64,000 nt of DNA from Rubripirellula sp. (GTDB taxonomy: Bacteria > Planctomycetota > Planctomycetia > Pirellulales > Pirellulaceae): the NCBI GenBank assembly GCA_965216875.1, contig OZ244207.1:7968001-8032000 (forward strand), written 5' to 3'. A program made the position numbers and the translations under genes. Shown here piece by piece: positions 15,256 to 31,309 of this stretch; positions within the stretch are counted from its first letter, which is position 1, and the number at the start of each line of letters is the position of its first letter. The notes beneath the pieces are model-generated. The model saw nothing but the letters and a program-made list of their open reading frames with translations. It did no database searches and was not told the DNA's origin.

Positions 15256-16725
15256 ATGCACCCATTCCTTCAGCGTCAACATCTCGAAACGCGTCGTCAG
15301 TTTTTCCGTGGCGCCGGTTTGAACCTTGGTGCTCTGTCTTTGGCGAGCATGCTTGCGGGCGACGCGACCGCTGGCGATTCCGCCGCAACGACGCAAGTTC
15401 ACCCGTCACTGCCAGGGTTGCCGCACTTTGCACCGAAAGCAAAGCGGCTGATCTATTTGCACGCTAACGGTGCGCCGTCACAGTTGGACATGTTCGATTA
15501 CAAGCCGGGGCTGCAAGAGTATTTCGACAAAGAGCTTCCCGACTCGGTGCGTAACAACCAACGTATCACGACGATGACGAGCGGGCAGGCGCGTTTCCCG
15601 GTCGCGCCGAGCAAATTCAAGTTCAAGGCTTGTGGCACGTCGGGAATCATGATGAGCGAGCTTGTGCCGCACATGCAGGAGATCGCCGATGACATCACGA
15701 TGATCAAATCGGTTCATACCGACGCGATCAACCATGATCCTGCGTGCACGTTTGTGATGACTGGCAGCGAAGTGCCTGGAAAACCGAGTCTCGGTTCGTG
15801 GCTGAGTTACGGGCTTGGAAGTGAAAGTAACGACCTACCCGCCTTTGTCGTGTTCACCCCGACGTTCCCGAAAGACAGCCAAGCTCAAGCGTTGTTCACG
15901 CGGATGTGGAGCAGCGGATTCCTGCCGAGCAGTTTTGATGGCGTCGCGCTGCGTGGTAGCGGTGACCCGGTGCTCTACATCAAAAACCCACCCGGTGTCA
16001 GCGGTGCCGATCGACGCAGAATGCTCGATGCGCTGAACCAACTCAACGAGCAGAACTTTGAGCGCTACGGCGACCCCGAAACTCGAACGCGGATCGCCCA
16101 ATACGAAATGGCGTTTCGGATGCAGACGAGTGTTCCCGAGCTAACCGACCTATCGAGCGAGTCGAAGGAAACGCTCGAAATGTATGGGCCGAATGTTGAA
16201 AAGAAAGGAACGTACGCGTCGAGTGCCATCCTAGCTCGGCGTTTGATTGAACGCGGTGTGCGGTGTGTGCAGATCCTGCACCGCGGGTGGGACCAGCACA
16301 ACAACCTGCCAAGGCTGATCAAGAACCAGTGCGATGACGTCGATCAGCCGACTGCGGCGTTAATCAAAGATCTGAAACAACGCGGTCTGCTCGACGAGAC
16401 ACTGGTTGTCTTTGGTGGTGAATTTGGGCGCACGGTTTACTCGCAAGGCACGCTAACGAAAGAGAACTACGGTCGAGATCATCATCCCCGCAACTTCTGT
16501 ATGTGGATGGCCGGTGGTGGTGTCAAAGGAGGCATGACTTACGGCGAAACAGATGACTTCAGCTACAACATCGTGCAAGATCCCGTCCACCTGAATGATC
16601 TCAACGCAACAATCCTTCATTGCATGGGCATTGATGATCGCAAGCTGAGCTTCAAGTTCCAGGGGCTCGATCAAAGGCTGACGGGAGTCGAGCCGCCGCG
16701 CGTGGTCAACGAGATTCTGATTTAG
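15256..16725 (+). CDS. DUF1501 protein (Tat-exported, sulfatase-like)
   Basis: TRRQFF Tat motif, [27 protein letters not shown]. Confidence 0.92.
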
Positions 16726-19700
16726 ACGGTTGCGTTTTTTCCAGTTGGCTCAACGCCCACTGGGCTTCTTGACGCGCGTTTTGGTCTAGCAGCGATTGGT
16801 TCAACTCGTCGGAGGTCTCGGCGGCGATGATTCGCAAGGCATCGATCGTGTCTTTCTCGCCGAGCATGCCAAGTGCGATCGTTGCTGACTGCTGGACTTC
16901 AGGGGACGAGTGTTGTTGTCGCTTTCGCAACACTTTGATGTAGTCGCGATTGGCTGAGAAACCTGCTAGCCGGCAAGCGATTGACAGCGATTCGGGAAGA
17001 TCGTTCAAAACCTCTTGGTCGAGAATCTCGGCGAGTGATTGGCGATGCTTGGCCAGCTGATCGATGACTCGTCGATCATCACGGCCGCGTTGCAGTTTTT
17101 CATAACGCCGCTGGACCCACCGATGTTGTTCGAGGTAGAGCTGACGCAAGCCGTGCAGTCGTACCTTTGCATTGCGGTTTTTGAGCAACGCTTCGACGGG
17201 AAAAAGCGGTCCGTGACTGTAATAGGTGCCCCATGTGCTCCCCATTGGGCCGCCTGTCACCACGCTTTGTGCTGCGACGAGCGCGTGATGGGCTCGACTT
17301 ACGAGCGGCGTTTGGACGACAGCGTGTTGCGGTTGCGAGATCACGGGCGTGGCATGCGTTCGAAAGGAATCGGAAACAAACCCACCAGCAAAGACAACGC
17401 CGTTACGATCGGCCAACAACGACGTGACACGCGTGCTTTGATCGGTGTACCAATTTGTGCTGGCAATCGTGGAAGCAACACTCAAACGATCTGGCGGCGT
17501 TTTTTCGAATCGAAGTTGCTGCAGGCGAGTTTTCTGCTCGGCATTTCGTCCCGTCGCCAGCGGCTTGTCAAAGAGCATTGGAACGCCGGAGACCGTCCTG
17601 CCCACGGGGGAGTCGATCGTTTTTTGGCTGACAAGTGGCGTGGCGGTCGTTCGGTTAACGTCGGTGAGGGTCCAATAGCGTGCGCTGCCTAGTTGCGGGT
17701 AGCTGGTCATGTTCGCGCGAATCAAGTTTTGGTTGCCAGCGAGTCGCTGGACGGAAAGTCCTGTCATCGTTTCCCAAGATGGATGAAGCCAAGGCTGTGG
17801 ACTCAAAGCAATCGTTGCAGAGAAACCGTCGTTCGGATCACATGGCTGGCGTTGGTTCAGCTTGGTCCAGTCAAACCAAGGCGTGTTGCCGTTTCCGGCT
17901 TCTGCTTCACTTCGAACGATGCTTGTTGGTGGCTCGCCGTCGATCGTGATCGCCTCGGTGTGCATTCCAGCAACGCCCTCGGGTGCGATTCGGCGATCGA
18001 ACAGCCAGTGTCTTCCGTTCAAAAGCTGAAAACGCAGGTCCATGTTCATCGTTTTCGTTTTGCACAACACGCGTAGCGGAACGGCTTGCCCGCTGTCAGT
18101 CTTGATGTAATCGTGGAATTGAAACTCAAAGCTCGATGAACGCTCCACGAGTGGATATCCGGTCTCGGCGTCGATGACGACCAGGACACTGTTGCGGCGC
18201 GTGCTGGTGTACCCACCAACATAGGTTCCCTTAAGTCCCGATCCGAAGATTTGAGAAAAACCACCGCTGGTCAAGCCAAACACCTTCACAGGGCGGCCAT
18301 CGTGTTGTCCCTCAAAGCAGACGGGAACCTTCCATTGTTTGGAGTCAAAGGCGAGTGCATCCAGTGCTGTCGTGAGTGTCACACCACGCCGAATTTGTCC
18401 GTAGCCCGAGTCCGTATCCGCTTCTTCGGTTCGGTCAGAGAAGCGAAACGTGTATTGGATTCGCGCCTCGTCATCGCGTTCGGCTCGCAACCAGAACTGG
18501 TGATTGTCGAGGATGGCGACAAGTTCATCCGCTGGGCGATTGGCGACCGCGACTGCGGTGGACGGGATCGTGACGCAATACATCGGTTGCTTTTGAGCGT
18601 CGTAAAGGGACAGCAGAAAGCTTTGATCCCGTGAAGGCGTCATCGAACGTGTGTGAATCTCAGCGCTAAGTGTCGACGTCGGCCACTGGCCAGCCAGGTT
18701 TCTTGACGAGTCCGCCGGCATGAAGGTGAGCGAACGCGCGGACCTTGGCGAGCCGGTTTTGGTTGCCGGTTCGAGTTCATGTTCGTGGCCGAGTTCAACG
18801 GGGGTCAAGCCTTGAATGACGACCGGTGTGCTCGCGTCTTCGACCTGGGTCAAGTCGGTATGTTTTTGACGAGCCTCCTGCAAACGCCCGGTCAGGTCAA
18901 TTGCGCCATCGTTAAGCTTGATATCCGCAATCGTTTCCTTCTGTGGCGTCTTTCCCGCAAACGTCGACGTTCCTTCCTCAAGAATCCACAAGACATCTTG
19001 GGCAATTTTGAAACGGTGCTCGGTGCGAAACTGATGTTTGGGTACATCGATTTCGATGTGTCGTGGCGCGTGCTGGGAACCTCGTGAGGCGAAATCGGAA
19101 AAGGTGATCGTCGCAAGCTTCTCATCTCCCGCGAAGACTTCCTCGCTGAGAATGCGATTGGCGTTGTCGATGGTCAACATGGATCGTGTGATGCGAATGT
19201 CGTGAAGGTACGACCAGGAAGTGGTTTCGAACATCGCGCCCACGTTCAAGACTGATCTTCGACCCGGTTTGGACCTCAGTTCAACCAATCGTTTGTCGTC
19301 TCGAATTTGAAAGTCGCTGACGACGAAGTCGTTTGGGCGACGGCCCCAATCGAGAGAGGGGAAATTGAGTCGTGTTCCCGAGATCCGCCGTAGCGTCTTA
19401 CGGCGCATCAGTTCCGTTGCCGGCAGATTCAAACGCGTTGCCGATTTGTCGTTTTTGACCACTTCGCTGGGCGTTCGATAACGGGGGAAGGCGTCGCGGT
19501 TGGCATAGGTGTAGGTGGCGCCATCGGGTGCACCAATCTCCATCCAGCCTTGGCCGTAGCGTTGTGGTTCGTCGCCGCGATGAACGACCTCGACGCTTGT
19601 CGTGCCATCGCTCTGCCATTGAAAGGCTTCGTCAAGCACTTCAGGTGACATCTTGTGCGTGAACGTGATCGAACTCAGTTTGCTCAAATCGGGGTTTTGC

Positions 19701-21907
19701 CATAGTCGATTCGACTCGAGGATTTGCTGTGCATCGAACGCTTCGGCGCGGCGTTGGCCTTGCTGCTCTTTCGCGAGAAGTTGGGCGAGTTCATCGGGTG
19801 TGGTCGGGAATGAATCACGTTTGCTGCCGCCTTGGACGATCGACTTTGTCTCTCCTGTCGCTTCGTCGATCATCGACTTGCTGTCCGCGGACCAACGAGG
19901 TTGAGTTGCTTGATCAAAGGCTTTTTGAAGGGAGTCGCCGTTGCGTTTGGCCAACCAAATCTCACGCCGGGTGTCGGAGTTGCCGTCATGGCGCAGCGAA
20001 ATGGATTGTGTCCACGCGACCCAGTTTGAATCGGGTGACCAAAGGGGACGTATGCTCCCACTGAGAAACCAGAATTTGCCGTCGCGGTCACTTTGGTTTC
20101 GCGCTGGGGGCGAGATGGTTTGCATGGTGCGTGTTTGCGTGTCCCAAATTCCGATCCGTCCGTCGCACGGGATTCCAGCGGACCACGACCCGCCTCGGAT
20201 GATCTCGGTTGACACGGCGATGTAACGTCCGTTGGGCGACCACGCCGCGCCAACGCCAAACGCGCCTGTCTCGTCAACGTTCCCCGTTTCAACGTCAACA
20301 ACGACCAGCGGGTAGTTGGCGACATAACTGGCTGCGTTGCCAATCGCGAGTCGCTTCGAGTCAGGTGACCAGGCTGGCGTTGTCTTCAGAGCCTTGCTCA
20401 GCAGACGCCGCGTTTGGTTGGTCGCCCAGTCATGGACAAAAAGGCCGTACTGTCGCGTGCCATCGTCGAGTGTCAGGGAGCCGACGTAGGCGGTCTGCTT
20501 CTTGTTGGGTGCGGCGACCTCGTAAGTTGGATCGCATTGCGGAGGCAATTGACCCGCCGCCACCTTCTCGTCGGTGCGGGGCTGTTGGGGCTGAGCAACC
20601 GGTGTTGCGTCGGCTTCCGAGCCAAGCGGTTTGCCAACGAGTAGCAACGGGCAGATCGCCACAGCAAGCAAGAGCGAAAGGGTGAAGGAGGCGCGTGGAT
20701 TGCCTGGCGAAGCGTTTCCGGTTTGGATCGACGAGATGCGTTCACGCAGTGATCGAAGCGGACCGAGGCTCCCCGTTGTAAGTTGTCGAGGCACGGTGTT
20801 TCCGGCAACGAAATCGATGGTGTCGACAATTGTCGCCGCGTACTGCGATGCACGCTCAGGCCACTGTCGCAAGACGGAAGCATCGCATGCCATTTCCTCG
20901 GCGTCTCGCAATCGTTTTCGCGCAAACCAAAAGATCGGGCACCACCACCAAAGCATCGTTGCCAGTAGTTCGATCCAGCGGACCCAATGGTCGCGGCGAC
21001 CGACATGTGCAAGTTCATGGGCAAGTAGCAGTTCGCGTGTTTCCCGTTCGCGCATCGCGGGAAGGTCGCGGGGCAAAACGAGCGTGCAACGACCGACACG
21101 ACTCCAAATCATCGGTGGGATGGGAGCTGCGAGAACGAGTACGTCTGGCGTTCGACTGGACGACAATCCCATTTGAGTTGCTAACCGTTGAACATCACAC
21201 AGGAGGTTCGCTTCGGCAGGTTCAGCGAGGGATAGTAAACGGCGAAAGTGTTTCAGATTGCGAAGTGTGATCAGCAAGACGAGCAGCGTTCCAAAGACCC
21301 AAAGAGGTACCGCGATGCCCAGCAACGACCATCCGCCGGTCGGTTCGGCTTTCGCCGTTACGGGCGTCGCCGCGACAGGCATCGTTGTCGCGGGTATCTG
21401 GGGGGCGTCTTCGGAATCGACGGTCGGTGGAGGTGCGGTGGCATTCGATGTTGCGTCGGCCGCGACAGGCATGTTTGTGTTGGCTGAGGATTCAACATCG
21501 AATGCCGACGCATCGATCTCGGTCGCCGATTCTTTGATGGGCTGATGCAGTTGTGATTCGGGACCAGCAACGGTCGGTTCCAGGTACCGCTGTGCCTCAT
21601 CCAATGTGTTTGTTTTCAAGAACTCAGGACTTGGTTGCGGACGTTTTTGAGCATCCGACGGTATTTCAATCCGTGAATTTCTGGCCAACCCTTGGTCTGT
21701 CGCAGGCAGCTGTGGCAGCCCGGTGATCGCGATTGGCAAAACAGGCGGGACGATCAGCCGTAAGAGCACGACGACCCAGAAAGCGTGTTCGATTGCAGGG
21801 TGTCGCCGCCGAGTCAGCAAGCCAACGAGCAACGCGACAAGCATCAACAGGGTTGCGATCGTCAGGACATTGACAACGACATGCGCGGCAAATGCAGGCG
21901 ACATCAT
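16706..21907 (-). CDS. BlaR1/M56 peptidase fused to TolB-like beta-propeller and a large periplasmic region
   Basis: N-terminal TM helices, HELAH zinc motif, EEMACD; WSPD/WSPN repeats; C-terminal HEAT-like helices. Confidence 0.88.
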
Positions 21908-21953
21908 GCGTTCTCTCCTGTAAGTCAGGATCAGGGTTTTCGATCAAACGTTG

Positions 21954-22346
21954 CTATTTCGATTCTTTGTTTTCTTTGAGCATTCGACGAAGCGCTTTTT
22001 GTTCTTCGTCGGTAAGCTTGCGCATGCCAATCAAGCCGGTTAGCATGGGCAACAAGGCACCGTCGCACAGTGAGTGCGAAAGGTCTCGCAAGCGGTGTTC
22101 GATCAGCGATTGGCGGTCGATCGCCGCGCTGAACCGGTGAGTACGCTCGCTGCGATCTCGAAGAACGCAGCCGCGTTTCTCCAAACGTTCAAGCAGCTTT
22201 TGCACCGTGTAGTAATGCGATGCTTCACCCCCAGGGTAAAGCTCGTCACAAACTTCACGCGTCGTCGCTTGCTCGTTTTCCCAAAGCACCTGCAACACGG
22301 AGAGTTCCGTGTCGGTGACGTGGAATGTCTTCTCTTTGCCGGACAT
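21954..22346 (-). CDS. BlaI/MecI/CopY family repressor
   Basis: ELSVLQVLWE, TVQKLLERLEKRG; ATG at 22346 preceded by GGAGAG; directly upstream of the M56 gene. Confidence 0.92.
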   Translation of the reverse strand: MSGKEKTFHVTDTELSVLQVLWENEQATTREVCDELYPGGEASHYYTVQKLLERLEKRGCVLRDRSERTHRFSAAIDRQSLIEHRLRDLSHSLCDGALLPMLTGLIGMRKLTDEEQKALRRMLKENKESK

Positions 22347-22363
22347 GGTCTCTCCGATCTCGT

Positions 22364-22417
22364 TCAAAGACGGGTTGTCTTTGAGTCAATTAGAGACACT
22401 GTCCACTTCAAAGTCAA
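22364..22417 (-). promoter_or_regulatory. Sigma70-type promoter with candidate BlaI operator palindromes
   Basis: Minus strand TTGACT-N17-TCTAAT (22417-22389); inverted repeat TCAAAGAC-N5-GTCTTTGA 22364-22384; GACACTGTC 22395-22403 in the spacer. Confidence 0.65.
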
Positions 22418-22547
22418 GTTGTCTTTTTGCGAGAAGGGCGACGCTCACGTGGAGCTGGCTGAGCATCGTGGTGATTGGCTTGAGCCCGTATCGCCCGCTG
22501 ACAAATCGCACTACGATGGATTGACTTCGCTTGGGAGAGGGGCGGGA

Positions 22548-23135
22548 ATGCGATTCGGAATACAAAGCGGTTTTCTGCTCACAACAGCATGTGCACTGCT
22601 TTTCGTTTTCATCAAAACACCGTGGCTCGCTGTCTTGACGATGGTGTTTCTTTTGCCAGCAGGCGTGGTTGCGATTGGATTGACCGCGCCTCAGAAGGGC
22701 ACAAAGCTTGACGTTGCCACCTATCGTCCGTTCGTGCAGATGTTTCGGTTGTGGGTCATGCTGGTCGTTGGGCTCGCCCTTTGTGCAACCTTTCTTTTGC
22801 TCTTTCCCGATGCGCATCGGCGGATCAAACGTTGGCGGGTGGGCGATTTGAGGTCGCACCAAATCGGGGCGTACGTGACGTTGCCGGTTGGCCAGAAGCT
22901 GCCGAGCGAGCATTCGCTGATGCAGATTAGGGATCGAAAAGGCTTGGTTGGTGAAACGCGGTACTGGCGCCGTGACTATTCAGCCAACGCCGGCACTTAC
23001 CTGATGGTCATCAGTACCGATCGGCGCGAGTACACGTCAGGCACGTGGTATGACGTCCGCGCCGACGTGCAAGACGGCACCACTTTGTTATTCAGAGAGC
23101 TCGAGTCGTCAAACGAGCAGCGGCCGATTCGTTGA
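22548..23135 (+). CDS. Hypothetical membrane protein
   Basis: ATG 22548 after GGGAGAGG; three hydrophobic segments followed by a soluble domain. Confidence 0.65.
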   Translation: MRFGIQSGFLLTTACALLFVFIKTPWLAVLTMVFLLPAGVVAIGLTAPQKGTKLDVATYRPFVQMFRLWVMLVVGLALCATFLLLFPDAHRRIKRWRVGDLRSHQIGAYVTLPVGQKLPSEHSLMQIRDRKGLVGETRYWRRDYSANAGTYLMVISTDRREYTSGTWYDVRADVQDGTTLLFRELESSNEQRPIR

Positions 23136-23160: not shown

Positions 23161-26100
23161 CTAGGGCATTGCAATCTCAACCGCCAAAGGTTCGACCCAA
23201 ACCTTTTGTTCGGCGGTGTAGTACAGATAGGTGCGTGAAGCGGGGCCGGTGTACTTGCCTGGAATCTCGGCCGTCACCGTGAACTCGATCTCTTTCGATT
23301 CACGCGGCGCGATCGTTCTCCAGTAGAAGACCACTTCACGCCCGCGCAGTTCGTAGTAGTCAAACTCACCAGCTTCCTTCAACTCATCAAGTTCATCCTG
23401 GCGAGGTTCCAAGCCGCCGGGCAGCCCAACGATGGCGACCGTCATGGGTTGGCCCTGGTCGGTTTTGTTTTCCAACACGGTTGACACGGTCATGGTGTCG
23501 CCGGCTGCGACATTGGCATCGGCATTCAGGTTCGTCGTTAACTCGAAGGGACATCCGTCGTCACTTCGTGGGGTGATCGCGTGGTAAGACAGGTCGATAC
23601 TGTAGGAAAGATTGCGTGCGTTTTTGGCGACCAATTCGATCGTGGCACCAGGTTCGGCGTCTTGCAGGTGTTGGCCGAGACCGACAATCTCGACGGTCGA
23701 GCCACTCTCAGGACGCGTTGGCAATTCGGCTTGCCCAATCACTTCGCCGTGCAGGAGCACTTGCAGCTTTCCGCCACCACCGGAATTGCCTGAGTGTTCC
23801 GCGATGGCAACGAGTGCCTTGAGCGCGAGTACTGTTGCTTGGGTGGAGCCAAAGCCTGCGTTGCCACGACGATTGGTCGTGATCCACTTGGCAGCAGCGC
23901 GAGCGTTGTCGATGTATTTTGGGCTCTTGATGAAAGCCAAAGTCGCCAGTGCGGTCGTTTCGACTTTGAGGGAGACGCCGCCGCTCGAGGTGACCGTTGT
24001 CTTGCCTTGCAGCAGCCCGTCTTCCCCTTGGGCTTGGGCAAGTTTCTGGAGCAACGCTTCGCCTTCGGTGGTTCGTTTGACGTTCATCAACGTTGCCGCA
24101 GAGAGTGCGATCAAGTAGGGATCGTCCGACTTGTTTGCCACCGAATGCATGTGATCGATTTCAGTAGCCAATTCGCTTGCGGCTCGTTGCGAATGTCCGG
24201 TGGCCACATCGGCCTCGCTGATTGCCCACAAAACGTAGGCGTTGACGATTTCCTGTTTGACCGACCAAACATGCAGGTGGCGTGGGTTGCGATGGAATCC
24301 GCCCTTGCCGTCGCGGCGACCCATCAACCACTTTCGCGTGCGAACCATCATGACATCGTTGACTTCCATGATGGCGGCCATGTCAGTGAACTGCATCAAT
24401 CCGAACGCCGACAGTGCCTCATGCCCCGGATCCTTTCCGAACCACTCGTAGCCACGTTTCTCACATTCGAAGCTGGTCAGTTTCGTGTAGCCTCGATCGA
24501 GCATGCCGCGAGCACGTCGTGAGACGTCGGGATTGGCGATGTCGTTCTTCTGCATGTACTGCAGAGCCATCGTGTTAGGGTAATTCGTCGCCGAAGTTTG
24601 CTCGAAGCATCCATGCGGCTCACGAAGGATGCTTTCGACGCCCGACATCACATCAGCGAGGGGCGACGGATAGGCTCGCAGGGTAACGGCAAGCGAACCA
24701 TCGACGATGTCATTGGGGACCGGCAACTGGACCGTTGCCCTGCGAGTGAGCACACCAGCAAGTGATTCGGATGCGGGATAGCCAGCGGGCGAGATATGAA
24801 CCTTGCGACGCACGGTGTCACGCAGGCTTGTTCCGGCGACGCCACCGATTTCGATTTCGGCGTCGATTTCAGCGCTGCCTTCGACAACGTCGATCGCGAC
24901 GTGATGTCGAGTGCGCTGGTTCCCGCCAAGGCTGAGCATCTGCGTGTCTTGATCGGCTACCTTTAATTCGTCACTCGCTTTGACTGCGAGTTCGATTCCA
25001 ACGTCGCTATCGGTTGCATTGATAACGGCAACGGGTAAATCGATACGGTCCCCAGTGGTAACTTCCAGTGGCAGCTTCGGTTCGATCTGGAAGGGTAGAC
25101 GCGATGTGACCATGCCACCGCCGGAACCGAGGCGTCCGTCAAGGGAGTGCCCGTCGACATGCACGCGAAACGTGGTGACAGAATCGGAAAGGTCGAACCG
25201 GATACTCGCTTCACCTTGTGAATCGGTCTTGACCAGCGGCTGCCAATAAAGCGTTTCCGCAAAGTCTTCGCGTACTTCATCCGACCGCTTTGGGTGTTGA
25301 TGGGCGTACTGGCGAACGGGGAATTGCAATTCACTCATCAATTGATCGGCAAGCGTCTTGGCGTCGATGCCCCGAGCATTCAAGAGTTGTTCAAGTTGCT
25401 CAGGCGAAATCAATCGACTGACGTCCGCACGGTCGCCCTTTGAGATCGCGTGGTACTTTGCGTAGCGGGCGTTGTCGGAATCGTCGTTTTCGCCGGTGGA
25501 TCGGTTTGCCAAATTGGATCGATTCGCGAAGCCGGGACCCGTTTGCGCGACGACGGCCGAATCGGCGGGGGCTTCCTCAGGTGCCTCGATGACAGGATCG
25601 TCGGTTGCAGCATCGGCGACGGCTCCCGCGGCGGGCGCGTCGGCCATTGGGGCCGGCGGCGGGGTCGCGGAAGGTTCCGTGCGTCGGTTGCGAGACTCCA
25701 CTTTTGCAGAGAACTCTTCAGTTTCCATGGCCGCATCGGCGCGTTCGTCGACTTGCTGGCTGGCTGGCATGATGACGGAGTTTTCCGATGCGCTGCACCC
25801 GACCAGTAGCCACGAAACGGACGTGACCAGAAGTAAGGCGGCAACGCTTGAATGGGCGGCAGACCGCAATCGAACGACGACCGCGCCAAGCCAAATCAAC
25901 AGCACGGCGAGCATCAAAAAGCGTGCTTGAACCAGCAGGTGCTCCCACGCTCCCGCGAGGGCGACGCGGTACTGATGGAACTGTTGATCAAAGGTCCCAC
26001 GATTGTCGAACGACGGTGGCACCGCTGCGATTTCCTCGCCATCCAGTTCCAGCAGTCGAATCAATTGTTGGCGGAAATCGACATCGGCTTCGCTCGCCGT

Positions 26101-28455
26101 GCCGCTGACGAATCGACGCCAACCTTGCGTTCCAAGCAGCAAGTCGAGTGATTCTTCGGCGCCCTCTTCGTCGCTCAAGTAAAAGTTGGCGTGTTCCAAA
26201 TCTTCTGGCGACTGAACTTCGCTGGTCAGCATAAAATGGGTCTGCATCGATGGTCGTTCGTCTTCTTCAAGACTGAGCGCGGCATCGTCGACGACCGCGA
26301 TGCCCAGGATCGCCGGTGCTGGCTTGCCCTCTTCGTCAGTCACTTTCAACTTCAGTCGCAACGGTTCGCCGGGTGAACGTTCGTGGTCTGCTTCCGTACC
26401 GACAAGTGACACATTCAATTGCTGGTCGTTGCGACGGAAAACGAGTCGTTCGACAAGTGGTTGATGCGAATCGCCATCGATCACCGTGACGCGGATCACG
26501 CCACTGATGCCATTGCGAATGGGCAAAGTCAATTTGTTGTCGCCAAGGAGTAGCTGCTTTTGAAGCTCACCAACCAGCTGGCCGCGACAAACCGCACGAA
26601 CGATCGCGGTTCGCTTCGAGTTCGAACGCAGGACAAGCGAGAGTTGTTTGTTCGCTCCGAACACGCCAGTGCCTGTGTCCATGACGGGCAAGTCCTTGAC
26701 GACCGCAGGAAGTTTGGGTGTGTTGGTGACGTCGACCGGTTGCAAGACCTTTAAGGTGTATCGTTCGCCCATGGAAGGAACAAATTCGAAGCGTCCCATT
26801 CCGTCACGTACGGTCTGGATCGTGGCGACACTTTGGCCCGAGCGTGATTGGATTTCGCCTTGCACATGGATCGGCTCGCCGAGCGAGTCGCGAGCAGAAA
26901 AGTAAACTCGATTGAGCAGGCCTTCGACCAAGTATCCACCCTCGGGGTAAAACTCGACCTCGACGCGTCCGAGCTGGATCGGAATCGTTTTCGATTGTGT
27001 CTCTTGAGTGGCTCCATCGTCGACGGTGATCGAGAGGCGGCCGGTGCCGTCACGAACGAATTCGGGAAGGTTGAACGTCGCAACGAGTGTCCCATCGGCA
27101 GCCGTCGTTGTCGCTTGTTCATGAATCACATCGCCATCGACTACGGCGGTGACCTGTGCTGAGACGTTCGCCAGCGGACCACCGGTTGCAAGCTCGGCTT
27201 TGAATTCGGCTTCGACCGTTTCGCCGGGACCATAACTGCGACGTCGAAACTCGATTTCTTTCTTGAACTGAGGAACGCGGTAAGCTCGCACTTGGACTTC
27301 ACGTTCTTCATCAGGGAAGAAGCCGTCAAGGCTTTTCGCGACCAGCTTGTACGTTCCGCCAGCAGCCGTCGTCGGGAGTGTGAACGCACCGTTGCCAACG
27401 CCTGATTCGGTGACACCTTCGGTGTACATGCCAGCGACGGCAGCGCCACTTGGATCAAAGAGCTCAAAGCGAATCGGAACTTCGAAACCTGCTTGCAACG
27501 TGCGACGCTGCAACGTGAGCGAGCGGAAAAAGATCGTTTCGCCGGGTCGGTACACGGGACGATCGATCGATAGGTGCGTGATGCAACGTGTTGGCTCGAG
27601 AGGGATTTCGAGTGTCGATCGACTGACTTGGCCGCCGGCAGAGGTGGCGGTCACGACCAAACTTGAACCTTCGGGGATCAACAATGAATCGGGAAGGACG
27701 ACGCGCCCCGAACCATCACTGTTGGTTTCGGCAGTGCCCGAAAAGAGCACATTCCTTTGACACAGCACCGAGAACGAGAGCGACGCGGGCACAACCGGGA
27801 AACCTTGGACGGCCCCTGCATCCATGCGTGATGTCGTGAAGCGAAACTCGTTGCTCGATGCAGCTTCATGCGCTGTGGCTGGTTCGGCTTGAACTCGCAG
27901 CGCCGCCACGGGCTGTTCGGGGGCACGCTCGGTGTAGTTCCAAGCGATGATTGCGAAACCGATCGAAGCGGCCGTTGCGGCGATCACGGTCGAACGCCGG
28001 ATCCACTCACGCGTACTCAAACGAGTCACCGGTTTCGCTGGTGGTGCTGGCGTTTCCGATGGTTGGGTTGGCTTCGCTGGTGGTTCCTCGACCAAGTCGG
28101 CTAGCACGGGAGGCTCGTCGTCGGCTTTGCTGTCTGTTTTGTCGGCCGTGTTCAGATCGCCGAGTCGATTGGCGGGAACGGTCGCAAACGTTGGGTCCGA
28201 GGTGTCCACATGGGAGCGGCCATTGGAACTTGGTTGTGCGTCGACCAACGCACGAACGTCAAAGTCAGGCGTTTGCGGTGATTGCGCTTTCGCGGCGTTT
28301 GCAATCTTGCCGGCTAGCCGCAATGTTTCGGCCCACAGGGCCGCCACGTCGGGTTCGGTCTCGATTCGGCTACGAAGCTCGTTTGCTTCTTGCTCGTCCA
28401 GCAAGTCGTAGTGAAGTTCGAGGAGTTCTTGTTGCAGTTGTTCTTTGGAGTTCAT
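23161..28455 (-). CDS. Alpha-2-macroglobulin (thioester protein) with N-terminal anti-sigma-like domain and TM segments
   Basis: DRPVYRPGE (MG2), FYPEGG, LLLGTQGWRRF, VREDFAETLYW, PHGCFEQTS thioester motif, STQAT, PASRTYLYY. Confidence 0.9.
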   Translation of the reverse strand: MNSKEQLQQELLELHYDLLDEQEANELRSRIETEPDVAALWAETLRLAGKIANAAKAQSPQTPDFDVRALVDAQPSSNGRSHVDTSDPTFATVPANRLGDLNTADKTDSKADDEPPVLADLVEEPPAKPTQPSETPAPPAKPVTRLSTREWIRRSTVIAATAASIGFAIIAWNYTERAPEQPVAALRVQAEPATAHEAASSNEFRFTTSRMDAGAVQGFPVVPASLSFSVLCQRNVLFSGTAETNSDGSGRVVLPDSLLIPEGSSLVVTATSAGGQVSRSTLEIPLEPTRCITHLSIDRPVYRPGETIFFRSLTLQRRTLQAGFEVPIRFELFDPSGAAVAGMYTEGVTESGVGNGAFTLPTTAAGGTYKLVAKSLDGFFPDEEREVQVRAYRVPQFKKEIEFRRRSYGPGETVEAEFKAELATGGPLANVSAQVTAVVDGDVIHEQATTTAADGTLVATFNLPEFVRDGTGRLSITVDDGATQETQSKTIPIQLGRVEVEFYPEGGYLVEGLLNRVYFSARDSLGEPIHVQGEIQSRSGQSVATIQTVRDGMGRFEFVPSMGERYTLKVLQPVDVTNTPKLPAVVKDLPVMDTGTGVFGANKQLSLVLRSNSKRTAIVRAVCRGQLVGELQKQLLLGDNKLTLPIRNGISGVIRVTVIDGDSHQPLVERLVFRRNDQQLNVSLVGTEADHERSPGEPLRLKLKVTDEEGKPAPAILGIAVVDDAALSLEEDERPSMQTHFMLTSEVQSPEDLEHANFYLSDEEGAEESLDLLLGTQGWRRFVSGTASEADVDFRQQLIRLLELDGEEIAAVPPSFDNRGTFDQQFHQYRVALAGAWEHLLVQARFLMLAVLLIWLGAVVVRLRSAAHSSVAALLLVTSVSWLLVGCSASENSVIMPASQQVDERADAAMETEEFSAKVESRNRRTEPSATPPPAPMADAPAAGAVADAATDDPVIEAPEEAPADSAVVAQTGPGFANRSNLANRSTGENDDSDNARYAKYHAISKGDRADVSRLISPEQLEQLLNARGIDAKTLADQLMSELQFPVRQYAHQHPKRSDEVREDFAETLYWQPLVKTDSQGEASIRFDLSDSVTTFRVHVDGHSLDGRLGSGGGMVTSRLPFQIEPKLPLEVTTGDRIDLPVAVINATDSDVGIELAVKASDELKVADQDTQMLSLGGNQRTRHHVAIDVVEGSAEIDAEIEIGGVAGTSLRDTVRRKVHISPAGYPASESLAGVLTRRATVQLPVPNDIVDGSLAVTLRAYPSPLADVMSGVESILREPHGCFEQTSATNYPNTMALQYMQKNDIANPDVSRRARGMLDRGYTKLTSFECEKRGYEWFGKDPGHEALSAFGLMQFTDMAAIMEVNDVMMVRTRKWLMGRRDGKGGFHRNPRHLHVWSVKQEIVNAYVLWAISEADVATGHSQRAASELATEIDHMHSVANKSDDPYLIALSAATLMNVKRTTEGEALLQKLAQAQGEDGLLQGKTTVTSSGGVSLKVETTALATLAFIKSPKYIDNARAAAKWITTNRRGNAGFGSTQATVLALKALVAIAEHSGNSGGGGKLQVLLHGEVIGQAELPTRPESGSTVEIVGLGQHLQDAEPGATIELVAKNARNLSYSIDLSYHAITPRSDDGCPFELTTNLNADANVAAGDTMTVSTVLENKTDQGQPMTVAIVGLPGGLEPRQDELDELKEAGEFDYYELRGREVVFYWRTIAPRESKEIEFTVTAEIPGKYTGPASRTYLYYTAEQKVWVEPLAVEIAMP

Positions 28456-28994
28456 GATTGACCTCCCACTGATTCACGAAGCTGTCGAATGGCAGCACGC
28501 ATTCGGGTCTTGACGGTGCCCAGCGGCAGGGAAGTTGCTTCGGCGATTTGTTCGTAGGTGAGCGAGCCGTTTTGGCGGAGCAAGAAGACTTCTTGCTCTT
28601 CCGGACGCAGGTTCAGCACCGCGTGCTGCAGCGTCTGCAATTGCTCGTCTCGCATCAGGCCCGCGTCGGGCCCATCGGCGGTCGATACCATTTGCACATC
28701 CTCGACAATCGACTGCCGCCGCCGATTCCAAGCGGTCTTGCGACAGTCACGGCCAGTGTTAAGAGCGACGCGAAACACCCATGCCTTGAGGTTGGTGACT
28801 TCCGAGATTTGATCTTGGCGTCGCCAACACTTCAGGAAGGTTTCTTGCAGCGCGTCGCGTGCGTCTTCCATGTTGCCGACCAGGTAAAACAGCGTCCCCA
28901 AGATTTCTCCGTGCGCATCCGCAAACAGCGTCTCGAGCCGTTGGCCAGAGTCCGCCGTCTCGTGCGATTCGGACGTCGGGGGCGTGGTTTTCAT
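28452..28994 (-). CDS. ECF RNA polymerase sigma factor
   Basis: DARDALQETF region 2, AWVFRVALN, LTYEQIAEATSLPLGTVKTRM region 4; ATGA overlap with the A2M gene. Confidence 0.93.
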   Translation of the reverse strand: MKTTPPTSESHETADSGQRLETLFADAHGEILGTLFYLVGNMEDARDALQETFLKCWRRQDQISEVTNLKAWVFRVALNTGRDCRKTAWNRRRQSIVEDVQMVSTADGPDAGLMRDEQLQTLQHAVLNLRPEEQEVFLLRQNGSLTYEQIAEATSLPLGTVKTRMRAAIRQLRESVGGQS

Positions 28995-29008
28995 GGTTCT
29001 GCAGGTAT

Positions 29009-29053
29009 GACGACAAGGCCGCCGCCACGGATTTCATTTTCTGCCAGAAATCC
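29009..29053 (-). promoter_or_regulatory. Candidate autoregulatory ECF-type promoter
   Basis: Minus strand TGAAAT-N18-CGTC ending 14 nt before the sigma ATG; overlapped by inverted repeat GGATTTC...GAAATCC (29029-29053). Confidence 0.4.
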
Positions 29054-29121: not shown

Positions 29122-29272
29122 GTGAGTCGAACGCGTTAGCGTCGGGCTTTTGTTCCGTAGCTACGCTCGCCAGAGCGTGGTTTAAGTGGGATGCGGACAA
29201 CCAATGCGGACCACCTTCTGGCGAAGGTAGCTACCAGCAGGCAAGGTCCCGAACGCAGCACGTTCGGCTCAA
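29122..29272. repeat. Nested REP doublets (outer GTGAG pair, inner GTAGCTAC pair)
   Basis: A+ 29122-29147, B+ 29157-29180, B- 29211-29234, A- ~29248-29272. Confidence 0.8.
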
Positions 29273-31116
29273 AGCTGTTCGATGCGTTTGAGCGATTCGG
29301 GCGGGATGAGCCCGTACGTGTGAATGTCGTCGAAATGGACTTTGGCGCCGGGGACGACCAGCTGAACGAATCCATTGGCTGCTTCAGGATTGGCGCGCAC
29401 ACTGCCGATTAATTCGCCGTTGAAGAAGGCAAACCAATACTCACCTTGTAACTCGGCTCGCACAAATTGATAACGTGGCACGTCCTCGCCGTCGTCGGCC
29501 GGGCTGATGACCAGTTCCTCTTTGACGTCGAGTTTGCCTTTCAACCCTTCACGCGAACCCAAGAAGACTCTGTCTTTCTCGACACGGACAGCGAAGCGAT
29601 CCGCTTCATCGAAGTCTTTGTTGGTGAATCCAAAATGAATCTCAGCAGCCTCGGCCGATTGCAGGTCGACGCCGACATTGATGCCGACCGCATCAGGAAG
29701 TCCTTCATAGAGTGTGCTTGGACGAGGGATCGATTTTGCCCATGACCCACGCGTTCCTTGCAAGATCGTTCCCCCTTCGGCATCTTGCCCGCGGCTCCAC
29801 AACCCAGATTGAGAGAGCAGGTCGACTTGTTGGCCATTGAACAAGGGGACTTGCCAGCCGCTGACAAGCATCGTCGGCTGCGGCGGTGACATGAGGAAAA
29901 AGGCAAGCCACGCGATGCCAGCGAGGACCGCGGTGATCGCGATCAAGCGAACGAAGATGGGCGGCTTTGAGCCGGGTTTGGGTGAGGGTGTGGATGCCGG
30001 TGTGTCGCGAGTGATCGATGGATGCGAGTCATGCAGTTTGATCGGCGCTAGCGATCGGTTTTGCGAGTCGGTGAGACCGTCGATGCGTTCGATCAGCGTT
30101 TGATAGTCACCGATGCGATCGTCGGGATCGGTTTCCATCATGTCGTCGATCAACGCGCGAACACTGTCGGGCAAATCGGCAGGCAATCGATCCGCGTCGT
30201 ACTTCTTGCCAGTCAACTTGGCGGCGATCAATTTCGACACCCTTGATTCGGCAAGCGGCGGTTTGCCGGTAAGCATGTTGACCAGGGTTGCGCCCAACGC
30301 ATAAATGTCGGCGCGATGATCGGTCGGGTCCCCCGAAAGCTGTTCGGGGGCGCAGTACATTGGCGTTCCGAGTGCCGCACCACTCATTGTTAATCGGGTT
30401 GCGTCTTCGTTGTCCGCATGGGGGCTTAGTCGAGCAAGGCCGAAGTCGGCGATCTTGACCAGTGGTACGCCTGGCGGAAGGTCATATCCAGTGGGGACTG
30501 CCGTCAGGATCAGATTGCCTGGCTTGATGTCTCGATGAACGATCTGTTGAGACAGTGCGTGTGAGAGTCCCGACGCGGTTTGTCGCACAATCGAAAGTGC
30601 CGTTGGCAAATCCATCGCGCCATCACTGTCAAGTTTCTCGCGCAGGTCCGTCCCTTCGACGAGTTCCATCACCAAGTAGAGCCGGCGATTGTGAGAGCCC
30701 GAATCAAACGCGCTGACAATGTTTGGATGTTGCAACCTTCCGATCGCCGCCCCTTCTTGTTGGAATCGGGCGGCAACGTTTTGTTCGACAAGACGATTCT
30801 GCAGGATCGCCTTGATGGCGACGTCACGTTTGAGATGCGGCTGGTGTGCTCGATAAACAACTCCTAGGCCGCCGTAGCCAAGCACATCGACAAGCTCAAA
30901 CCCGGGAGCAAGATCGGTCGGCGCCGCAAAGGCTTCCGCAATCTCGACGTCGATTGGACGAAGCATCCCCGTTTCAAGTGCAACCTGGGACGCTGTTTTG
31001 GCGCGATCGACCGATTCACGCCGCAGCGTTTCAGCCTGGTCGGCTGAGAGCAGACTTCGCGCATGCGCTGCGGTGATGAACGCATCCGATTTTTCGGTAT
31101 CAAAATCAGAACTCAT
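29269..31116 (-). CDS. Membrane Ser/Thr protein kinase with C-terminal DUF1080-like domain
   Basis: GYGGLG, VAIK, HRDIKPGN, DFG, GTPMYCAPEQ; TM; VPLFNG. Confidence 0.9.
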   Translation of the reverse strand: MSSDFDTEKSDAFITAAHARSLLSADQAETLRRESVDRAKTASQVALETGMLRPIDVEIAEAFAAPTDLAPGFELVDVLGYGGLGVVYRAHQPHLKRDVAIKAILQNRLVEQNVAARFQQEGAAIGRLQHPNIVSAFDSGSHNRRLYLVMELVEGTDLREKLDSDGAMDLPTALSIVRQTASGLSHALSQQIVHRDIKPGNLILTAVPTGYDLPPGVPLVKIADFGLARLSPHADNEDATRLTMSGAALGTPMYCAPEQLSGDPTDHRADIYALGATLVNMLTGKPPLAESRVSKLIAAKLTGKKYDADRLPADLPDSVRALIDDMMETDPDDRIGDYQTLIERIDGLTDSQNRSLAPIKLHDSHPSITRDTPASTPSPKPGSKPPIFVRLIAITAVLAGIAWLAFFLMSPPQPTMLVSGWQVPLFNGQQVDLLSQSGLWSRGQDAEGGTILQGTRGSWAKSIPRPSTLYEGLPDAVGINVGVDLQSAEAAEIHFGFTNKDFDEADRFAVRVEKDRVFLGSREGLKGKLDVKEELVISPADDGEDVPRYQFVRAELQGEYWFAFFNGELIGSVRANPEAANGFVQLVVPGAKVHFDDIHTYGLIPPESLKRIEQL

Positions 31117-31309
31117 GATGCGCAGTGAAGGTCCCGGCGAGCCGTTTCGAGACAGCGAGCATCCCGGTCGCGAAGGAATTCGAGACGGGTGCCAGCGTCC
31201 ATTTTGGATGAAAGGGGCTGCCACCAGGATACTACGCCGATGGCCGTTACGCCCACCGCCCAGAACGGATCTGGGCAGAAACCGTAACGGCTGATATTCA
31301 AAGCCGTGG

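Follow-up and report, generated by a model that had tools for sequence, protein, structure and literature searches.

Class I anti-sigma factors of extracytoplasmic function (ECF) sigma factors, such as RsiW/SigW (5wuq), MucA/AlgU (8z6g, 6in7), RskA/SigK (4nqw), RslA/SigL (3hug), PupR (5cam), and RseA/RpoE (1or7), combine an N-terminal helical bundle, a transmembrane (TM) segment, and an extracytoplasmic part; they are encoded at position +1 of the ECF gene, in an operon with an ECF-type promoter. Members with large outer modules are already known: in the sections of PMC7826278 and its supplement that treat them, putative anti-sigma factors of ECF226 and ECF289 carry a vWA module with DUF3520 (YfbK), those of ECF25 and ECF218s8 carry DUF4349, and ECF226 is recorded from Planctomycetes. 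Here, we describe a two-gene locus of this general plan in a 64,000-nucleotide stretch of a Rubripirellula sp. genome (contig OZ244207.1, positions 7,968,001 to 8,032,000; hereafter, the window), where an ECF sigma factor gene is followed by a gene whose 1764-aa product we predict to be an anti-sigma factor fused to an alpha-2-macroglobulin (A2M). This protein has the N-terminal bundle, TM segment, gene position, and promoter type that class I anti-sigma factors show; however, its outer portion, 1,590 aa long, is a macroglobulin of the thioester type, and it has two extra predicted mid-protein membrane helices and an internal lipobox.

The outer part can be compared with three groups of macroglobulins. 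Based on the relevant parts of PMC4498604 and PMC5764988, type I A2M (ECAM/YfhM of Escherichia coli and SaA2M of Salmonella) likewise has a CxEQ motif, a bait region, and periplasmic anchoring at the inner membrane; in contrast to type I proteins, the fusion is only distantly similar in sequence (YfhM, E 1e-9), has its first hydrophobic segment at aa 155 in place of an N-terminal export signal, carries a predicted cytoplasmic anti-sigma domain and membrane hairpin at the bait region, and comes from a genome in which no pbpC, the usual operon partner of type I genes, was found. Type II A2M is represented by MagD of P. aeruginosa, in which bait cleavage and protease trapping take place although it lacks a thioester (PMC5764988, same part). 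The metazoan proteins A2M, A2ML1, CD109, TEP1, and C3/C4 are the best sequence matches to the C-terminal half and resemble it in having the catalytic histidine position occupied. To our knowledge, no metazoan thioester protein has a cytoplasmic domain controlling transcription.

As far as our searches reach, an anti-sigma factor built on a macroglobulin is undescribed. The terms “macroglobulin” and “A2M” are absent from the main text of PMC7826278 and the examined part of its supplement, and from the supplement of PMC7406223; “macroglobulin” is also absent from the main text of PMC7671368. A title and abstract search found no description of an A2M anti-sigma factor, although a mention in Wiegand et al. 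2020 or in the remainder of the Casas-Pastor supplement is possible. If the prediction is correct, a thioester/macroglobulin protein would act as a transmembrane receptor that controls transcription, a role for which our searches gave no precedent, and bacteria would be able to sense proteolytic attack on the periplasm directly, through a broad bait and not a specific site-1 protease.

The sigma factor operon and the predicted anti-sigma domain

The sigma factor gene (28452..28994, minus strand) encodes 180 aa with no C-terminal extension, and its product matches Pfam Sigma70_r2 and r4_2 as well as TIGR02937 above cut-off, in agreement with the ECF identity assigned in a preliminary description of this DNA. 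The fusion gene (23161..28455, minus strand) stands at +1, and its start codon overlaps the sigma factor stop codon as ATGA (28452..28455, minus strand, read from the sequence), exactly where the preliminary description placed it.

The N-terminal 57 aa (28285..28455, minus strand) very probably form a class I anti-sigma domain, predicted to bind and inhibit the sigma factor. A structure model built from 38 sequences (pLDDT 88) shows a three-helix bundle (helices 3-15, 21-33, and 35-57). Class I domains typically comprise a three-helix bundle and a fourth helix within about 60-70 aa; in the model, helices 3 and 4 appear as a single long helix. When this model was compared with 48,161 solved chains, ranks one to four were all class I anti-sigma domains, with Z of 5.4-6.1: PupR (Z 6.1, rmsd 2.5, 54 aligned), RsiW (Z 5.8, rmsd 3.7, 62 aligned), RskA (Z 5.7, rmsd 4.2, 62 aligned), and MucA (Z 5.4, rmsd 2.8, 53 aligned); RslA was seventh. 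The first four Foldseek rows were all MucA (probability 0.72-0.87). Among N-termini of ECF-linked homologues (sampled as described below), zf-HC2 was above cut-off in 9 of 64, the window being part of the scan and not one of the nine; three of the carriers (L037, L041, L061) fall in the window’s half of the homologue tree. These zf-HC2 homologues align with the window protein, in which IETEPDV replaces their HxxxCxxC. That motif is present in 15 of 64 ECF-linked homologues and absent from the window protein, which has no cysteine before aa 232; in the relevant section of PMC7406223, zinc-less and zinc-binding class I domains occur mixed within groups. The N-terminus is acidic and lacks a signal-like hydrophobic stretch before aa 155-173. 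The proposal that it is a zinc-less class I anti-sigma domain and not an ordinary signal is supported by the fold matches, zf-HC2 in homologues, ECF synteny, and a promoter of autoregulatory type.

Several scores weigh against this assignment. The Z values lie under the tool’s safe level for helical bundles, and the Foldseek E-values are 0.42-0.79. Window aa 1-66 match no Pfam family, and NCBIfam gave a single weak anti-sigma match (E 0.015), far below cut-off. A profile search of solved structures placed designed helical repeats above RsiW (E 0.21), with 3hug_B at E 0.38. The Z values and Foldseek results are modest by the standards of small helical bundles; what counts for the identification is the ranking and its agreement with the zinc motif of the homologues.

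The sigma factor start codon is preceded by the motif AAATCC-N15-TCGTCWTA in 18 of 21 close-group loci. The window copy (29035-29006) comprises a -35 element, GAAATCC (29029..29035, minus strand), and a -10 element, TCGTCATA (29006..29013, minus strand), which ends 11 nt before the start codon. We trained a matrix on 17 loci other than the window and scored it across the 8.3-Mb genome (99% complete). The window promoter was the best site genome-wide (25.3); among 87 ECF-like genes no other is preceded by a strong copy (the runner-up scored 16.0), which gives the locus the appearance of an autoregulated ECF/anti-sigma operon. We found no sigma-70 promoter and no terminator excess.

The same matrix points to lipoproteins with the two modules named above, vWA (YfbK) and DUF4349, as candidate targets of the sigma factor. 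The second-best site in the genome (23.2) precedes a DUF4349 lipoprotein gene, and a 17.4 site precedes a vWA/YfbK lipoprotein gene. Of 10 DUF4349 homologues, 4 are likewise preceded by the motif, two of them scoring 22-23 and two having a spacer one base shorter (one confirmed by scan, one by eye), and it scores at least 13.6 before 6 of 30 YfbK loci, all six being short lipoprotein forms. A 21.1 site precedes the gene for a secreted protein of 1397 aa, whose apparent orthologue in G316 also has the pattern in front of it. In five genomes with an orthologous sigma factor the pattern was counted 21 times vs 3 in controls; the five genomes without one, however, gave 10 vs 2, and permuted matrices yielded equally many matches at scores of 15-19. 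Given the matches in permuted matrices and sigma-less genomes, only the top regulon candidates count. The 1397-aa protein (L156:2036-5500; G000 about 6273535-6277728) belongs to no Pfam family, and the Atlas gave MG-containing clusters as weak leads only (0.84-0.86). Separately, three loci of relatives (L209:3914-6823, L210:2826-5432, and L211:2631-3785) encode an anti-sigma-like N-terminus and TM segment fused to vWA/YfbK or DUF4349, fitting the ECF226-type description.

To survey linkage, we assembled a non-random sample of 120 loci, drawn from the best matches of a 301-genome search of the phylum and a 201-genome search of the family. These yielded 116 full-length genes, or 117 with the window; six partial or split open reading frames (ORFs) were excluded, and L112 gave no N-terminal half. 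In 67 of the 117, the gene is directly preceded by an ECF gene, which supports the expectation that ECF-A2M linkage extends to homologues. Of these, 64 were detected with phmmer, and a sigma profile added L038, L046, and L058, the last counted for its sigma match although it falls outside the distance rule (66 tabulated plus L058). The ATGA overlap also occurs in 28 of the 64. Seven of the 50 full-length genes without an ECF gene have <900 nt of upstream DNA, and most of those with enough begin with an ordinary signal-like stretch near the first macroglobulin (MG) domain. There is no conserved third gene beside the pair, the largest neighbor cluster covering 12 of 120 loci.

Named close homologues are Pirellulaceae, and cultured carriers are found in Novipirellula, Stieleria, Rubripirellula, and Roseimaritima. 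A second sample of 80 named loci, from an alignment-based scan of contigs, included 35 loci of other phyla with sufficient upstream DNA; none of the 35 has the hairpin, and one Bacteroidota locus has an upstream ECF gene yet no anti-sigma match. Within the searched set, the fusion is therefore found only in Planctomycetota. The idea that secreted forms derived from ECF-linked ones was dropped after other phyla were added, as the tree (FastTree, midpoint root) fixes no order.

Predicted membrane topology and the internal lipobox

The anti-sigma domain is followed by a low-complexity, Pro-rich, predicted cytoplasmic linker (aa 58-150; 28006..28284, minus strand). The preliminary description had noted such a linker, and it is present; its length is variable and not conserved, the first TM segment often lying at aa 75-120 in homologues. 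TM1 (aa 155-173; 27937..27993, minus strand) is Ala-rich, has Arg residues before it and a mean hydropathy of 1.47, and would run in-to-out by the positive-inside rule. It had been described as the only TM segment; instead, we identified another two segments that are more hydrophobic still, one spanning aa 845-864 (hydropathy 2.22) and one aa 871-889 (2.07, ending LLVG-C887), so that hydropathy and charge suggest three membrane helices rather than one. Where the bait region begins, aa 845-886 (25798..25923, minus strand) appear in hydropathy as a membrane hairpin, with TM2 and TM3 joined by a short basic loop. The net charge of the loop is +1 to +5 in all 82 scored cases, which fits a cytoplasmic location.

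Of the 67 ECF-linked genes, 64 encode at least one hydrophobic segment after the N-terminal MG half and before the post-bait motif, vs 3 of the 50 others. Among those three, L083 and L137 lie at contig ends or gaps, and L092 is a genuine exception. Against a strict link stand the ECF-linked forms without a hairpin (L038, L046, and L058, and also L223 in the named set) and the phylogeny: the tree (144 rows, with 8 removed because upstream DNA was short or the gene split) shows about six changes of ECF linkage and four of the hairpin, leaving only four pairs that are independent (p 0.25-0.5 in a sign test). By count the association is strong, but statistically it is weak. Some macroglobulins (L092, L201, and L202; also L082, L083, and L091) have 6-8 hydrophobic segments at the bait position; L092, L201, and L202 begin with a signal or anchor, and L092 has no upstream ECF gene.

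TM3 ends in the lipobox-like sequence L-V-G-C, with the cysteine at position 887 (25795..25797, minus strand). We surveyed 120 close proteins, of which 86 have His at the catalytic position of the thioester domain, 31 have Asp, and 3 were unassigned. An x-x-G-C at the end of TM3, with hydrophilic sequence after it, was found in 82 of the 86 with His, 2 of the 31 with Asp, and 2 of the 3 unassigned; in those 82, neither the Gly nor the Cys varies. The segment has the basic n-region, hydrophobic h-region, and lipobox Cys of a lipoprotein signal (RLR...VAALLLVTSVSWLLVG-C887), but it is internal (aa 862-887), which is atypical for a signal peptidase II substrate. A pattern shaped on the fusion itself, run over 4359 ORFs of the genome, matched internally in no other protein, and a literature search returned no publication on “internal lipobox”. 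Genes for Lgt and LspA are present in the genome. In the window’s clade the hairpin ends in this lipobox, so processing there may yield two chains; we regard such two-chain processing, with predicted lipidation and cleavage at C887, as about as likely as not. If a lipobox is indeed processed midway along a polytopic protein, that alone would be a notable result. By analogy, a cut at C887 would presumably split the chain near the site of the beta/alpha cut of pro-C3.

A distant subclade has a different TM3, which matches the start of DUF1559 above cut-off in L080, L133, L143, and L148 (4 of 17 scanned) and, weakly, the N-terminus of the GspG pseudopilin (5 of 7 scanned). The TM3 matches in both clades suggest that two lineages took TM3 from the N-terminal export signals of other proteins. 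Resemblance to a prepilin/DUF1559 N-terminal segment was seen in L080, L133, L139, L143, and L148, with a possible prepilin-peptidase site in L148. The ESM Atlas gave no usable match for window aa 780-960, and a comparison of TM3 and the bait region with the YfbK lipoprotein N-terminus showed no sequence similarity.

Macroglobulin domains and the proposed signaling route

Pfam matches to MG2, A2M, TED, bMG10, and A2M_recep, all above cut-off, confirm that the 1764-aa protein is an A2M with MG domains; domain boundaries and names beyond those of Pfam were assigned by analogy. The predicted periplasmic N-terminal half (aa 180-775; 26131..27918, minus strand) contains MG2 at aa 294-385, together with MG4 and A2M_BRD matches below cut-off. 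An acidic, Ala/Pro-rich, low-complexity region (aa 888-1060; 25276..25794, minus strand) directly precedes EDFAETLYW, which aligns with the post-bait KYFPETWIW of human A2M; on this alignment, the hairpin and the low-complexity stretch are placed at the bait position. The thioester domain (TED; aa 1269-1549; 23809..24651, minus strand; TED_complement, E 4.8e-32) contains the intact CFEQ motif seen in the preliminary description (C1283-Q1286; 24598..24609, minus strand), and G-C-F-E-Q is invariant in an alignment of 92 intact-gene sequences. His1395 (24271..24273, minus strand) aligns with N1088 (Asn) of human A2M and with a His in CD109; it occupies the catalytic position of C3, C4B, and A2ML1, where His raises reactivity with hydroxyls (PMC7864068, relevant part). 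The protein ends in an MG domain of receptor-binding type (aa 1646-1764; 23164..23520, minus strand), with bMG10 and A2M_recep above cut-off. The nearest solved relatives of the C-terminal half are human A2M, CD109, A2ML1, TEP1, and C4 (E 1e-24 to 1e-13), and E. coli YfhM (E 1e-9) is more distant.

Many natural versions stop after the bait. A profile of the anti-sigma domain was searched and its best 150 matches kept; 73 of these were shorter than 600 aa and left unclassed, whereas the 77 longer ones comprise 27 with a TED, 34 without, and 16 other proteins or fragments. The 34 TED-less proteins end ≤45 aa past the post-bait MG segment, although some may be cut by contig ends; all 34 keep at least one hydrophobic segment (30 keep two or more) and a bait-position spacer of 62-430 aa. 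At three genomic loci with orthologous sigma factors (54-60% identity), the partner is TED-less and its stop codon lies within the contig; L081 and L199 have the hairpin, and L198 does not. In L199, from genome G313, the MG part has decayed past Pfam detection, and the anti-sigma domain, TM1, and hairpin remain. Based on these forms, the thioester is probably not needed for signaling, and the conserved signaling core would consist of the anti-sigma domain, TM1, MG scaffold, hairpin, bait, and closing MG segment. This weakens the earlier suggestion that protease trapping is part of the signal. Examples of TED-less proteins are L081, L198:2707-5184, L199:2662-5877, P0133, P0158, P0175, P0192, and P0220. 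Natural variants lacking the TED or the hairpin separate signaling parts from trapping parts.

We propose that the locus is a self-regulating ECF operon of two genes, whose anti-sigma factor would be an inner-membrane protein with three membrane helices built on an animal-type A2M. The well-supported step is that aa 1-57 would keep the sigma factor inactive in the cytoplasm. Hydropathy and charge suggest that TM1 exports the N-terminal MG domains and that TM2 and TM3 dip back through the membrane, pinning the start of the bait region and leaving the remainder periplasmic. In the window’s clade, C887 would be lipidated and the chain probably cut by signal peptidase II, the two resulting chains staying joined by the MG domain split around the bait. 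A periplasmic protease would then cut the exposed bait and open the membrane-bait-MG loop; where a TED exists, the thioester would fire, trapping the protease or binding hydroxyls via His1395. By analogy with known class I systems, the anti-sigma factor would next be cut in TM1 by an RseP-type protease, freeing the sigma factor; an RseP-family gene is present in the genome. The released sigma factor, as the promoter data show in part, would transcribe its own operon again, replacing the spent sensor, and drive a few envelope lipoproteins (vWA/YfbK and DUF4349), so that a cut in the outer part would probably switch on a small envelope gene set. Trapping would be an accessory output, separate from the signal. 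Bait cleavage is favored as the trigger since the stretch at the bait position is kept where the trap is lost and since MagD, with no thioester, is still cut in its bait; on the other side, the bait-position region may be a mere flexible tether. We give bait cleavage leading to anti-sigma proteolysis, as the overall explanation, slightly better than an even chance. The design lends itself to experiment, as the promoter is short, the predicted inhibitor has 57 aa, and cultured carriers exist.

A more elaborate account, in which the protein is a bacterial receptor resembling complement, is rather unlikely. In that account, signal peptidase II would cut at C887 to leave the anti-sigma part in one chain, which spans the membrane, and the thioester part in another, which is anchored by lipid, a split that would resemble the conversion of pro-C3 to its beta and alpha chains. 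Protease attack on the bait would fire a His-catalyzed thioester while the hairpin route freed the ECF sigma factor, which would restock the receptor and induce a vWA lipoprotein partner, echoing C3b-factor B and iC3b-CR3. A second clade would have obtained its TM3 by a recruitment of its own, from a prepilin/DUF1559-like segment, and in some members selenocysteine may take the place of the thioester cysteine.

Three other explanations compete with bait cleavage. The protein may be a true anti-sigma factor with a non-proteolytic signal, its MG scaffold responding to a ligand or to whether an envelope complex is assembled (one with its own vWA or DUF4349 lipoprotein targets, for example), with the low-complexity stretch as a tether and the hairpin relaying a conformational change. 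That the TED is dispensable, that L199 keeps the anti-sigma domain, TM1, and hairpin with an MG part beyond Pfam detection, and that planctomycetes place a similar anti-sigma-TM front on vWA/YfbK and DUF4349 modules all fit this explanation, but none of the 92 full-length sequences in the alignment departs from the thioester motif, and an unstructured stretch is retained exactly at the bait position in 34 of 34 TED-less forms. We consider it possible, though on the unlikely side. Alternatively, the thioester itself might be the sensor, reacting with help of His1395 as C3 and TEP1 do with hydroxyls of a surface or polysaccharide, so that attachment or thioester hydrolysis, and not protease trapping, would free the sigma factor as a contact or attachment signal. 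In animals, vWA domains bind activated C3, and a vWA protein is among the candidate targets; a His is also found at the catalytic position in the window’s clade, and the closest solved relatives are metazoan A2M, CD109, A2ML1, TEP1, and C4, ahead of YfhM. However, Asp, Asn, or another residue stands at this position in many ECF-linked members, TED-less members would be unable to work in this way, and A2ML1 has the His yet inhibits proteases (PMC7864068, relevant part). We consider a thioester sensor improbable.

It is also conceivable, if very improbable, that the N-terminal bundle is a relic, the protein being a membrane-anchored protease trap that is merely co-transcribed and the sigma factor being controlled by, for example, the Ser/Thr kinase encoded directly upstream (29269-31224). 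Zinc ligands have been lost in the window’s clade, and Planctomycetes are on record as having ECF groups linked to kinases (PMC7826278, relevant part of the supplement). Kinase-like neighbors, however, occur in only 11 of 120 loci (by neighbor cluster, not Pfam), and class I groups mix zinc-less with zinc-binding domains. Moreover, identity over aa 1-57 is 48-61% in the 10 closest homologues, in contrast to a freely varying linker, and the anti-sigma domain outlasts the TED and MG domains in decayed forms.

Neighboring genes and related macroglobulins

Downstream of the fusion gene, a membrane-protein-like ORF of 205 aa with no Pfam match (22518-23135, plus strand) is convergent with it, which closes the operon at two genes. 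A membrane Ser/Thr kinase gene (29269-31224, minus strand) lies directly upstream of the sigma factor promoter. Farther along, 16706-22367 (minus strand) encodes a BlaI-family repressor and then a 1733-aa BlaR1/M56 peptidase fused to a beta-propeller and HEAT repeats; this is another transmembrane signaling pair based on proteolysis, and it is not kept beside the ECF-A2M pair at other loci. In line with the preliminary description, no PBP1c gene stands beside the A2M gene, and PBP1c (TIGR02073) was not found anywhere in the genome.

An in-frame TGA lies exactly at the thioester cysteine codon (G-TGA-FEQ) in 15 genes of 12 genomes (L056, L085, L086, L087, L089, L090, L092, L200 with two genes, L201-L205, and L207). 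We regard these genes as candidate selenocysteine macroglobulins on the basis of sequence: selA was above cut-off in 11 of the 12 genomes vs 219 of 301 genomes of the phylum sample. SECIS-like folding after the TGA codons did not clearly exceed chance (p 0.17 for z and 0.065 for energy). The window’s own genome encodes a second macroglobulin-like protein of 2790 aa (L155:5132-13504; G000 about 3904130-3912503), which has no TED match in Pfam and combines a signal-like N-terminus with TPR repeats on either side of its MG2/A2M domains.

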